Positions 12,998-64,000 of a stretch of 64,000 nt of DNA are shown here, one piece after another. The position numbers were made by a program, and so were the translations under genes. Source of the stretch: Escherichia coli (GTDB taxonomy: Bacteria; Pseudomonadota; Gammaproteobacteria; Enterobacterales; Enterobacteriaceae); NCBI RefSeq assembly GCF_036507355.1, contig NZ_AP027877.1; one strand, 5' to 3'. The notes beneath the pieces are model-generated. The model worked only from the letters and a program-made list of their open reading frames with translations, made no database searches and had not been told where the DNA came from. Numbering within the stretch: position 1 is the first letter of the stretch; every line of letters begins with the position of its first letter.

Positions 12998-13056
12998 GCT
13001 ATGATTAGCCGCTATTTTTTTGTCCTGAATGATGTTTGACACTACCGAGGTGTACT

Positions 13057-14454
13057 ATTTTTACCCGAGTCGCTAATTTTTGCCGCAAGGTGCTAAGCCG
13101 CGAGGAAAGCGAGGCTGAACAGGCAGTCGCCCGTCCACAGGTGACGGTGATCCCGCGTGAGCAGCATGCTATTTCCCGCAAAGATATCAGTGAAAATGCC
13201 CTGAAGGTAATGTACAGGCTCAATAAAGCGGGATACGAAGCCTGGCTGGTTGGCGGCGGCGTGCGCGACCTGTTACTTGGCAAAAAGCCGAAAGACTTTG
13301 ACGTAACCACTAACGCCACGCCTGAGCAGGTGCGCAAACTGTTCCGTAACTGCCGCCTGGTGGGTCGCCGTTTCCGTCTGGCTCATGTGATGTTTGGCCC
13401 GGAGATTATCGAAGTTGCGACCTTCCGTGGACACCACGAAGGTAACGTCAGCGACCGCACGACCTCCCAACGCGGGCAAAACGGCATGTTGCTGCGCGAC
13501 AACATTTTCGGCTCCATCGAAGAAGACGCCCAGCGCCGCGATTTCACTATCAACAGCCTGTATTACAGCGTAGCGGATTTTACCGTCCGTGATTACGTTG
13601 GCGGTATGAAGGATCTGAAGGACGGCGTTATCCGTCTGATTGGTAACCCGGAAACGCGCTACCGTGAAGATCCGGTACGTATGCTGCGCGCAGTACGTTT
13701 TGCCGCCAAATTGGGTATGCGCATCAGCCCGGAAACCGCAGAACCGATCCCTCGCCTCGCTACCCTGCTGAACGATATCCCACCGGCACGCCTGTTTGAA
13801 GAATCGCTTAAACTGCTACAAGCGGGCTACGGTTACGAAACCTATAAGCTGCTGTGTGAATATCATCTGTTCCAGCCGCTGTTCCCGACCATTACCCGCT
13901 ACTTCACGGAAAATGGCGACAGCCCGATGGAGCGGATCATTGAACAGGTGCTGAAGAATACCGATACGCGTATCCATAACGATATGCGCGTGAACCCGGC
14001 GTTCCTGTTTGCCGCCATGTTCTGGTACCCACTGCTGGAGACGGCACAGAAGATCGCCCAGGAAAGCGGCCTGACCTATCACGACGCTTTCGCGCTGGCG
14101 ATGAACGACGTGCTGGACGAAGCCTGCCGTTCACTGGCAATCCCGAAACGTCTGACGACGTTAACCCGCGATATCTGGCAGTTGCAGTTGCGTATGTCCC
14201 GACGTCAGGGTAAACGTGCATGGAAACTGCTGGAGCATCCTAAGTTCCGTGCGGCTTATGACCTGTTGGCCTTGCGAGCTGAAGTTGAACGTAACGCTGA
14301 ACTGCAGCGTCTGGTGAAATGGTGGGGTGAGTTCCAGGTTTCCGCGCCACCAGACCAAAAAGGGATGCTCAACGAGCTGGATGAAGAACCGTCACCGCGT
14401 CGTCGTACTCGTCGTCCACGCAAACGCGCACCACGTCGTGAGGGTACCGCATGA
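13057..14454 (+). CDS. pcnB: Poly(A) polymerase I
   Basis: ORF track 13036..14454; known PAP I N-terminus ([12 protein letters not shown]...) begins at ATT 13057-13059; C-terminal basic tail; stop overlaps folK start (ATGA). Confidence 0.85.
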
Positions 14455-14930
14455 CAGTGGCGTATATTGCCATAGGCAGCAATCTGGCCTCTCCGCTGGA
14501 GCAGGTCAATGCTGCCCTGAAAGCATTAGGCGATATCCCTGAAAGCCACATTCTTGCCGTTTCTTCGTTTTACCGCACTCCACCGCTGGGGCCGCAAGAT
14601 CAACCCGATTACTTAAATGCAGCCGTAGCGCTGGAAACCTCTCTTGCCCCTGAAGAGCTACTCAATCACACTCAGCGTATTGAGTTACAACAAGGTCGCG
14701 TCCGTAAAGCGGAACGCTGGGGACCGCGCACGCTGGATCTCGACATCATGCTGTTTGGTAATGAAGTAATAAATACCGAACGCCTGACCGTTCCGCACTA
14801 CGATATGAAGAATCGTGGATTTATGCTGTGGCCGCTGTTTGAAATCGCGCCGGAGTTGGTGTTTCCTGATGGGGAGACGTTGCGTGAAATTTTACATGCA
14901 AGAAAATTTAGTAAATTAAACCAGTGGTAA
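14451..14930 (+). CDS. folK: 2-amino-4-hydroxy-6-hydroxymethyldihydropteridine pyrophosphokinase (HPPK)
   Basis: ORF track 159 aa, [19 protein letters not shown]... Confidence 0.93.
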
Positions 14931-15076
14931 TTTATTAATTTCGTGAATATAAATAATTTCCGAAAATCACATCATTCCAATTCCCAAACCAATCCTATTA
15001 GAGTAGACACTAGCTACATCAATTAATATTTAAATGCATCCTACCCATCTCCTTACACGAAACATCTCCATTTTGA

Positions 15077-15117
15077 AATTTAAATTTACTTAACCCTGAT
15101 TTAAGTAAATTTAAATT
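15077..15117. promoter_or_regulatory. Perfect 17-bp inverted repeat (aatttaaatttacttaa / ttaagtaaatttaaatt) with 7-bp spacer, upstream of yadN
   Basis: Read directly; lies in the 360-bp AT-rich spacer about 175 bp before the yadN start. Confidence 0.35.
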
Positions 15118-15290
15118 GCTCAAGTAACTTTAAAATGCACAATATGCGTCCTAATGAGGAATGATTGTAAATTTAGGTAACAAACAATCATTTCTCATTA
15201 ATGTTTGAATATATCTTTATATATTTGAGCCATGAATAGTCATACTTCAAATTAATGAACTACCTTATGGAATATTATTCAAGGATTATT

Positions 15291-15875
15291 ATGTCGAAAA
15301 AATTAGGTTTTGCGCTGTCCGGCTTGATGTTAGCAATGGTTGCTGGTAATGCTTCTGCAGCACTGGACGGTGGCCAATTAAATATCAGCGGTCTGGTAGT
15401 TGATAACACCTGTGAAACCCGTGTTGATGGTGGCAACAAAGATGGCCTGGTGCTGCTGCAAACTGCAACTGTTAGTGAAATCACTGCAGGCGTACTGAAT
15501 GACACCGTAGGTGCTAAAGCTAAACCTTTCAGCATCACCGTTGACTGCAGCAATGCGAACCCGAATCCTGGTAGCACTGCTAAAATGACCTTCGGTTCCG
15601 TGTTCTTTGGCAATAGCAAAGGGACTCTGAACAACGATATGTCTATTAATACCCCGGCTGATGGTGTAAATATTGCCCTGCACAATATTGATGGTTCTAC
15701 TATCAAACAGGTTCAAATTAACAACCCAGGTGATGCTTACATTAAAACCATGGATGCAACCTCAAAAACTGCAACTTTTGATTTTAAAGCATCCTATGTT
15801 CGTGCTGAAACAAGCACAGCACCAACTGCTGGTTATGTTAAAACCAACACTGCATATACCATTACTTACCAGTAA
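15291..15875 (+). CDS. yadN: Fimbrial major subunit (chaperone-usher fimbriae)
   Basis: ATG 15291 ([23 protein letters not shown] signal peptide), 194 aa; pilin-like C-terminus. Confidence 0.85.
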
Positions 15876-62170: not shown

Positions 62171-62263
62171 GATGCCGCACGTAGGCCTGATAAGACGCGC
62201 CAGCGTCGCATCAGGCATCGTGTGCGAATGTCGGATGCGGCGAAAACGCCTTATCTGACCTAC
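62171..62263. repeat. BIME: REP units between convergent yacG and mutT
   Basis: gcctgataagacgcgccagcgtcgcatcaggc and gtcggatgcggcgaaaacgccttatctgacctac are canonical REP sequences. Confidence 0.75.
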
Positions 62264-62649: not shown

Positions 62650-62708
62650 TGTCTTAAACCTATAAAAAAGGCGCAGAATCCTGCGCCTTTTACTTCAACA
62701 GTTAGCTT

Positions 62709-64000
62709 TTATTGCAGGCGGCCATGGCACTGCTTGTATTTTTTACCAGAACCGCACGGGCAAGGATCGTTACGTCCTACTTTGCGCTCACCGGTTTGCG
62801 CCGCCAGTGCAGCTGCGGCTGCAGAGTCGTCATCCTGATGGCTAAGCTGCTGCATTTGCGCTAAACGCTCGGCTTCCATACGACGCTGTTGTTCCAGCTC
62901 CTCAACCTCTTCAGGCATACGTACCTGAACTTTGCTCAGCGTACTGATAACTTCATATTTCAACGACTCCAGCATCGCTGCAAACATGGAGAACGATTCA
63001 CGTTTGTATTCCTGCTTCGGATCTTTCTGTGCATAGCCACGCAGGTGGATACCCTGACGCAGATAGTCCATCGCTGCCAGGTGCTCTTTCCACAGGGAGT
63101 CAAGCGTTTGCAGCATGACGCCTTTCTCGAAGTGACGCATCATCTCAGCACCAACCACTTCTTCTTTACGCTGATACACTTCGATGGACTGCGCCAGAAT
63201 GCGCTCACGCAGCGTCTCTTCATGCAGTTCTGGTTCTTTATCCAGCCACTCGGCAATTGGCAAATCGAGGTCGAAATCGTTCTTCAGACGTTCCTGCAGC
63301 CCCGGAATATCCCACATTTCTTCCAGCGACTGTGGTGGAATGTAGGCATCAATGGTCGCTTTGAACACATCTTCACGAATGCTGTTAATGGTTTCGCTCA
63401 CATCGCTGACATCCAGCAATTCGTTACGCTGGGAGTAAATGGCACGACGCTGATCGTTAGCCACGTCATCATATTCCAGCAGTTGCTTACGAATGTCGAA
63501 GTTACGACTTTCAACTTTACGCTGGGCGTTGGCAATCGCTTTAGTCACCCACGGGTGTTCAATGGCTTCGCCTGGCTTCATACCCAGTTTACGCATCATT
63601 CCGGATACTCGGTCGGAAGCAAAAATACGCATCAGCGCATCTTCCATCGACAGGTAGAAACGGGAAGAACCAGCATCCCCCTGACGACCAGAACGACCGC
63701 GCAACTGGTTATCGATACGACGGGATTCGTGACGCTCGGTACCGATGATATGCAGGCCACCTGCTGCCAGTACCGCATCGTGACGTACCTGCCAGTCGGC
63801 TTTAATTTTTTCAATTTGCTCTGCGGTCGGATTTTCCAGCGCGGCAACTTCTGCCTGCCAGCTACCACCGAGCACAATATCTGTACCACGACCCGCCATG
63901 TTGGTCGCGATAGTCACCGCAGCCGGATAACCTGCCTGAGCAACAATCGCCGCTTCGTTGGCGTGGAATTTGGCGTTCAGGACATTGTGCTTAATACCGG
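62709..64000 (-). CDS. secA: Preprotein translocase ATPase SecA, C-terminal part; gene runs off the window end
   Basis: ORF track 62709..63917 ends with zinc-binding [14 protein letters not shown]; frame stays open upstream to 64000 and reads ...[40 protein letters not shown]. Confidence 0.93.

Follow-up and report, generated by a model that had tools for sequence, protein, structure and literature searches.

A perfect inverted repeat with a conserved core in the folK-yadN spacer of Escherichia coli: a possible operator-like site

The repeat and its setting

Upstream of the yad fimbrial operon of Escherichia coli one can find a perfect inverted repeat with arms of 17 bp. Is it the binding site of a regulatory protein, as had been proposed from the sequence of this locus, or does it owe its existence to something else? 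We examined this question in a stretch of DNA of 64 kb (called the window below), in which the features relevant here are the following (the basis of each is given in parentheses):

13036-14454, plus strand: pcnB (open reading frames)
14451-14930, plus strand: folK (open reading frames; name from the RefSeq annotation of an identical genome)
14931-15290, plus strand: folK-yadN intergenic spacer of 360 bp, 27% G+C (open reading frames, composition, RefSeq annotation)
15077-15093, no strand: left arm of the repeat, AATTTAAATTTACTTAA (sequence and repeat finder)
15094-15100, no strand: asymmetric 7-nt spacer of the repeat, CCCTGAT, which varies between alleles (allele comparison)
15101-15117, no strand: right arm of the repeat, TTAAGTAAATTTAAATT (sequence and repeat finder)
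15085-15109, no strand: conserved core of the dyad, TTTACTTAA-N7-TTAAGTAAA, with its strictest part, ACTTAA-N7-TTAAGT, at 15088-15106 (alignments, conservation profile, pair counts)
15116-15121, plus strand: putative -35-like hexamer TTGCTC, overlapping the outer end of the right arm (allele comparison)
15138-15143, plus strand: putative -10-like hexamer CACAAT (below the threshold of the consensus scan)
15152-15200, plus strand: second dyad or stem-loop, with arms 15152-15168 and 15184-15200, 16/17 complementary (repeat finder, RNAalifold, pair counts)
15291, plus strand: ATG of yadN, the start of the yad chaperone-usher operon (open reading frames, RefSeq annotation of an identical genome)

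The spacer extends from the stop codon of folK to the ATG of yadN, and its G+C content is to be compared with about 51-58% in pcnB and folK; the AT-richness announced by the original prediction is thus confirmed by measurement. A stretch of 621 bp spanning the spacer is 100% identical to E. coli L73, where RefSeq names the two neighboring genes folK and yadN. The same prediction likened this region to H-NS-silenced cryptic fimbrial promoters. The composition is that expected of an H-NS-silenced promoter region, and H-NS binding and repression have been published for yad in K-12 and ExPEC (PMC3661553, PMC13245861); this work concerns the alleles of K-12 and CFT073/EC958.

The folK-yadN region of K-12 is listed as an H-NS-associated "promoter island" (PMC3661553), and the yad operon is repressed by H-NS in K-12 as well as in ExPEC (PMC13245861). 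In CFT073, the ~200 bp upstream of yadN have a promoter activity which H-NS represses more than 100-fold and which serum induces; the authors of that study postulated a regulator of Yad antagonising H-NS, and ArcA is implicated there in yad expression, anaerobic and at low temperature (PMC13245861). Overproduction of SlyA raises yadN 2.4-fold, and yadN has also been flagged as a LeuO target by SELEX (PMC5797941). It has further been published that LmiA does not bind the yadN promoter and that differences in yadN expression between isolates are associated with upstream variants. Yad fimbriae are widespread in E. coli and were recently linked to bloodstream infection (PMC13245861).

The repeat itself, predicted as a perfect 17-bp palindrome at 15077-15117, is exactly that: its arms are complementary at 17/17 positions around the 7-nt CCCTGAT, and it does not extend at either end, since A15076 stands opposite G15118 and C15094 opposite T15100. 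It had also been called unlikely by chance. We shuffled the spacer 5000 times while preserving its dinucleotides, and no perfect inverted repeat with a loop of at most 20 exceeded 14 bp (P(>=12) = 0.003), so that 0/5000 shuffles reached 15 bp and this statement holds as well. In the whole window the dyad is the longest perfect hairpin-type repeat, the runner-up having 12 bp. The surprise must nevertheless be lowered somewhat. In both arms the outer 11 nt consist of (AAATTT)n fragments, and as AAATTT is self-complementary, any two tracts of this kind necessarily form inverted repeats when they are in register; this means that a repeat of this kind is extended more easily than one of arbitrary sequence. 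The two arms are also near-direct repeats of one another. Folded as a single strand, the hairpin reaches -15 kcal/mol as RNA and -12 kcal/mol as DNA, with z-scores of about -6 to -8 which are equal on both strands.

One can notice, partly overlapping the dyad, a tandem direct repeat of 19 nt at 15103-15140 (AAGTAAATTTAAATTGCTC / AAGTAACTTTAAAATGCAC, 84% identical), a place where the B2 alleles are 10 nt shorter. Its second copy can pair with the left arm of the dyad (82%), giving an alternative hairpin.

Alleles of the spacer and the conserved core

The spacer allele of the window is rare. It is present with at least 99.7% identity in 70 of 5426 complete E. coli genomes, 43 times complete and 27 times truncated, and those truncated copies which we fetched are cut by IS1; two strains with this allele differ from it at 15098 only (G>A), inside the loop. 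Alleles of the K-12 type, which are 76-77% identical to the window over 15044-15290, occur in about 2960 genomes and alleles of the B2 type in about 1230, while a few genomes have another fimbrial operon at the yad position or IS1-mediated deletions.

Some of these rearrangements touch the dyad directly. In CUPF09, IS1A sits exactly at the junction between the spacer of the dyad and its right arm (15100/15101), with a deletion reaching up to the 3' part of yadC. Other strains have IS1 elsewhere in the folK-yadN spacer, some of them with deletions of a similar kind; IS1 inserts recurrently into the AT-rich spacer, and yad is often lost. UCPROB-001 carries a different fimbrial subunit gene at the folK-proximal position, behind a non-homologous spacer without the dyad. 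This position appears to be a site where chaperone-usher operons are swapped, related ones being found after folK in E. albertii, Pseudocitrobacter and Salmonella too. In these three, whose loci, as orthologous ones, we obtained by a protein search followed by contig look-up, the spacers are non-homologous and the core is absent, though a fimbrial operon follows folK. A scan of genome contigs for YadN gave one E. coli locus and a distant Pseudomonas match.

The comparison covered 13 different sequences of the dyad, taken from E. coli and E. fergusonii. The core TTT[A/G]CTTAA-N7-TTAAGT occurs in all the homologous yad alleles which we sampled, though in E. fergusonii one pair is broken, C>A having destroyed the sole C-G pair of the core, and the arms ACTTAA-N7-TTAAGT are intact in 10 of the 13 sequences. 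Columns 15081-15110 have a mean identity of 0.86-0.89, which few parts of the spacer equal, while the alleles which share the core are about 60-80% identical in the rest of their spacers. TTTAC and GTAAA, which mark the two half-sites, are always separated by N15, even in SCU-112, whose inner arms have changed to ACTAAT/TTTAGT, which gives a perfect 13-bp repeat with a 9-nt spacer. In the common allele of the K-12 family (504211, UTME-6, ET761), a G in the left arm and an A in the right arm occupy the same symmetric position and pairing is not restored; in the ST131 and SCPM alleles the change is confined to the base beside the left arm, TTTG replacing TTTA. Judged from these alignments, the conservation of the core is one of sequence and not of pairing alone.

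The perfection of the repeat is another matter. The outer 8 bp of each arm, (AAATTT)n-like, are fully paired only in the rare allele of the window, about half of the cells being paired elsewhere. The perfect repeat of K-12 has 11 bp and a 3-nt loop, that of an O157-like allele is imperfect (14/17), and it is imperfect in most alleles. Hence the argument that a perfect 17-bp repeat must be an operator fails, because this perfection belongs to an allele complete in 43 of 5426 genomes. The arms in the window resemble a mosaic of E. fergusonii-like and K-12/SCU-112-like segments; moreover, a T:T at position +/-4 of the inferred ancestor was repaired by a left-arm change in the window and by a right-arm change in SCU-112. 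The perfect 17-bp form is plausibly a lineage-specific extension, arisen through recombination and/or templated mutation, and the conserved, functional unit of the dyad is probably the core of 19-25 bp.

A putative promoter and the search for a regulator

The reading which we prefer, to which we give a probability of about 0.4, is that the dyad is an operator-like site of a putative dimeric protein in the H-NS-silenced promoter of yadN. The functional part would be the core at 15085-15109, located directly upstream of the -35 region, and partly over it, of a weak sigma-70-type promoter (TTGCTC/CACAAT), from which transcription would start near 15150 and give a leader of about 140 nt. The two half-sites would be occupied by a dimeric DNA-binding protein, which would then either hinder RNA polymerase or counteract the silencing of this AT-rich region by H-NS. 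In the rare allele, both (AAATTT)n-like flanks would have come into full register, whence the 17-bp perfection; this register would have been gained by recombination between alleles and/or hairpin-templated (quasipalindrome) mutation and would be dispensable for function.

A consensus promoter scan of 14700-15500 called no promoter, and the hexamers given above come from the comparison of alleles. A conserved block, TGCACAATA, can be read as containing a -10 hexamer xAxA[A/T]T, whose positions 2, 4 and 6 (A, A, T) do not vary among the alleles listed; this hexamer follows the right arm at a distance of 21 nt. One can find a -35-like hexamer 16 bp upstream of it in most alleles listed (TTGCTC in the window, TTGTTC in K-12, TTGCAT in SCU-112, and in B2 TGGATA, which was created by a GG substitution in the right arm) and 17 bp upstream in E. 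fergusonii (TGGATT). From this arrangement we infer that yadN transcription starts near 15150, with a leader of about 140 nt which begins at the second dyad. Relative to this putative start, the center of the dyad would be at about -53 in the window, K-12 and SCU-112 and at about -43/-44 in B2, GF131 and E. fergusonii: the two families of alleles differ by an indel of 9-10 bp, which is about one helical turn, so that the dyad stays on about the same face of the helix. In the B2-type alleles sampled (CFT073 is not among them), the ~200 bp upstream of yadN would contain both this promoter and the core, and the position of the promoter is consistent with the activity published for CFT073 (PMC13245861).

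The conservation of the core and its adjacency to these hexamers make the proposed operator plausible, although no regulator consensus fits it. The substitutions point in two directions. The G/A change of the common K-12-family allele fits a symmetric contact with a protein and not a hairpin, because both half-sites have changed symmetrically without pairing. The repair of the T:T on opposite arms, together with the replacement of a T-A pair of the core by A-T in SCU-112 (pairing being kept in this sole both-sided change within the core), would be typical of a base-pairing constraint or of templated mutation and speaks against an operator.

Which protein could bind there? The dyad shares several traits with operators of the LeuO/SlyA type, palindromes through which dimeric regulators overcome H-NS at promoters that are horizontally acquired or belong to cryptic fimbriae: it is AT-rich, measures ~19 bp and lies close to the -35 region of a chaperone-usher operon silenced by H-NS, its K-12 form is readable as 7-N5-7, an arrangement described for the core site of LeuO (PMC6698644), and its own core has a T-N11-A arrangement, TAA-N7-TTA (T15091-N11-A15103, in TAA-CCCTGAT-TTA), a motif which is very permissive in AT-rich DNA. 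The agreement of the dyad with their motifs is poor. For LeuO, a regulator of the LysR type, we rebuilt the core ATATTCA-N5-TGAATAT from the cas and leuO regions of K-12, and the dyad matches 5/14 of its specified positions, for which reason we rejected it as a LeuO operator. The other regulators, SlyA, H-NS, ArcA, CRP, FNR, IHF, Fis, Lrp, CpxR and RcsB, were scanned as consensus sequences against shuffles, and none matched the dyad above shuffles. For SlyA, of the MarR type (TTAGCAAGCTAA or TTA-N6-TAA), no site of the spacer exceeds 9/12, a value reached on the minus strand at 15111 and lying at chance level (157/500 shuffles do equally well); the spacing of the dyad core is TTA-N9-TAA and not of the N6 type of SlyA. 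The direct repeats of the ArcA box, GTTAATTAAATGTTA, are matched at 12/15 at 15080-15094 on the minus strand (68/500 shuffles equal), and the H-NS motif TCGATAAATT at 7/10 only, no better than any shuffle.

Another site deserves mention for LeuO. Right after the stop codon of folK, at 14932-14950, TTATTAA-TTTCG-TGAATAT agrees with the LeuO core at 12/14 positions (P about 0.025 in shuffles), and its TGAATAT half lies within a strongly conserved block and is kept in most alleles. For the LeuO binding reported at yadN, this site is the stronger candidate of the two.

If the dyad were the operator of a regulon, copies of it could be sought elsewhere, and the original prediction had suggested such a motif search. 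This gave no second site. The window holds one exact match of the core, its four matches with 2 mismatches being within chance expectation; a BLAST search of the 5426 E. coli genomes (word 11, fixed spacer) gave one locus each, counted twice as a palindrome; and in a metagenome scan for TTTACTTAA-N7-TTAAGTAAA, among the at least 120 matches listed, all five E. coli-like contigs are the yad locus. Since no second copy was found in the window, by BLAST in E. coli or in metagenome contigs derived from E. coli, the search provides no evidence of a regulon; the sequence of the dyad was not found in the literature searched either. The remaining metagenome matches listed are mostly AT-rich contigs, to which must be added an unrelated repeat family in GC-rich contigs. 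This family, GGGGACAG-TTTACTTAA-N7-TTAAGTAAA-CTGTCCCC, is present in at least 10 contigs (48-63% G+C; one has two copies) and forms a perfect hairpin, about 45 nt long, in which the loop varies and one compensatory variant (GACGG/CCGTC) occurs; we would take the family for a dispersed palindromic element from a GC-rich organism.

One may go further and suppose that the core is the operator of the postulated regulator, which would relieve the H-NS silencing of Yad upon host, serum or environmental cues, and that the alleles of the dyad tune expression between lineages. This seems quite improbable to us at present. If it were true, the tuning variants would be the 17-bp perfect form, the common G/A double change, the GG of B2 (with its -35-like hexamer) and the 10-bp shift. 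Whatever its role, a conserved dyad near a likely promoter is a concrete bait in the search for a protein and a defined target for mutagenesis, and the series of alleles constitutes a natural experiment on the evolution of inverted repeats in AT-rich, silenced DNA. Current concepts are left unchanged: the dyad is an element of a familiar type and a useful lead for the regulation of Yad.

Competing explanations and neighboring structures

The dyad could be a functionless quasipalindrome in AT-rich DNA coated by H-NS, kept or perfected by template switching and by recombination between alleles, in which case any effect on yad expression would pass only through general H-NS binding or curvature. 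E. coli has quasipalindrome hotspots, for example in thyA, where template switching "perfects" an imperfect inverted repeat; they form a class of laboratory mutations. The resemblance with the thyA type is real, as the dyad is mostly an imperfect repeat perfected in one lineage, in a single, nearly invariant allele, and as two lineages independently repaired one and the same mismatch, each on a different arm, which is what hairpin-templated mutation predicts. The self-complementary outer arms and their mosaic appearance go in the same direction, as do the unusual richness of the window allele in palindromes on both strands (z = -5.0 and -3.5) and the frequent IS1-mediated deletions in the spacer, which mean that the locus is dispensable in many strains. 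The difference from thyA is that the process is read here from the comparison of alleles alone and that it leaves the conservation of the core unexplained. The core is kept in all homologous alleles and in E. fergusonii while the neighboring columns diverge, neutral AT-rich DNA would hardly be expected to leave its strictest part intact in 10 of 13 sequences, and the spacing to the -10-like block shifts by about one helical turn instead of drifting. We consider this explanation somewhat unlikely.

Second, the dyad could act as a hairpin in plus-strand RNA, either at the end of the pcnB-folK transcript or as the stem-loop which opens a long, structured leader of yadN. At a transcript end it would be a weak terminator, or a stable 3' stem left after Rho-dependent termination in 14970-15070, and would insulate yad from read-through. 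No local fold is more stable than the hairpin (-15 kcal/mol, z = -6), which lies 147 nt past the stop codon of folK; the C-rich, G-poor 100 nt upstream of the hairpin, at 14970-15070, have a GC skew of about -0.44 and look like a Rho loading site; and a rise of yadN after treatment with bicyclomycin has been published. Intrinsic terminators and protective 3' stem-loops, located between operons in convergent or tandem arrangement, are alike in being stable sense-strand stem-loops, as here in the untranslated gap after folK, and in K-12 the 11-bp stem is followed by the U-rich UUUAAUUUGUU. Unlike them, the stem is nearly pure A-U, with one G-C pair, there is no U-run in the window (where the tail is GCTCAAGTAAC) or in the B2 alleles, and the stability of the B2-type hairpins is very low, -5 to -8 kcal/mol. 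A scan for canonical Rho-independent terminators found none in the spacer, and the supplements of published transcript-end mapping which we searched contain no 3'-end entries for folK or yadN. Rfam holds no family matching the dyad, the only matches being spurious ones to miRNA precursors (15-22 bits against thresholds of 80-195).

The counts of pairs are more favorable to such a hairpin, up to a point. Of the 117 cells of the inner nine pairs, 114 remain paired; wherever the core differs by a transition, the plus strand has G:U and never A:C (16 cells against 0); in 12/12 homologous alleles folded, the plus strand gives a stabler fold than the minus strand; the both-sided changes of SCU-112 preserve pairing; the sequence of the loop varies freely; and the neighboring stem at 15152-15200 covaries above shuffles. 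In the helix of 17 pairs, 77% of the cells are paired against 32-56% when it is slid, but column shuffles reach the observed values in 121-456/500 cases: the covariation of the dyad helix is not above shuffles, of which 121/500 reach the paired-cell value and 159/500 the covariation score. Besides, a common allele has a G:A in the middle of the stem, E. fergusonii lacks the only C-G pair, and the primary sequence is conserved beyond what a hairpin needs. The parallel changes on both arms are as compatible with pairing of nucleic acids, or with hairpin-templated mutation in the absence of selection, as with protein binding. Over the 235-nt region the z-scores (plus/minus strand) are -5.0/-3.5 for the window, -2.4/-3.3 for K-12 and about -1/0 for B2. 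They are not consistently specific to the plus strand, which favors repeats at the DNA level and does not support a consistently structured plus-strand leader. On the whole, we find an RNA hairpin unlikely.

Third, invertible elements often control fimbrial operons, and the dyad, with inverted arms around an asymmetric spacer of 6-8 bp like that of recombinase cores, and with 8/11 matches between its arms and the XerD arm of dif, could be a tyrosine-recombinase core (loxP/dif-like), the end of a fimS-like inversion or a relic terminal repeat at the edge of the yad island. This is hardly credible, as 8/11 is weak in AT-rich DNA, the dyad lies inside a conserved spacer and not at a homology boundary, the window has one exact match of the core with no inverted second copy and E. 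coli genomes have none either, so that there is nothing to invert or excise, and Yad is reported not to be phase-variable (PMC13245861).

The operator-like site, as we prefer to read the dyad, has several structured neighbors. The second dyad, TAATGAGGAATGATTGT-N15-ACAATCATTTCTCATTA, has two adjacent pairs which covary (GC/CG/AU/GU and UA/GC), 0/500 shuffles reaching its covariation score, and the yadN leader may have it as its 5' stem-loop. A CpxR-type box is GTAAA-N5-GTAAA, and a direct repeat in the loop of this second dyad, GTAAA-TTTAG-GTAAC at 15167-15181, matches it at 9/10; by eye, CpxR-like matches of 8-9/10 can be seen at the same place in K-12, B2, SCU-112 and E. fergusonii. Elsewhere in the window, Rfam matches above the gathering thresholds are those of tp2, STnc40 and naRNA4 (CssrE), at 50796-50909 (plus strand), 62664-62733 (minus strand) and 62184-62260 (minus strand). 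Nearer the ATG of yadN, at 15216-15259, a third inverted repeat reads ATTTGAG...CTTCAAAT in the window and ATCGGGG...CCCGAT in the B2 alleles, and in WL297 it reads ATCGAGAC...GTCTGAT, which looks like a compensatory change. Finally, RNAalifold pairs the Shine-Dalgarno GGAU with the AUGU of the start codon at 15283-15296; this helix of four pairs is nearly invariant across alleles and, if it forms as modeled, could limit the initiation of translation.
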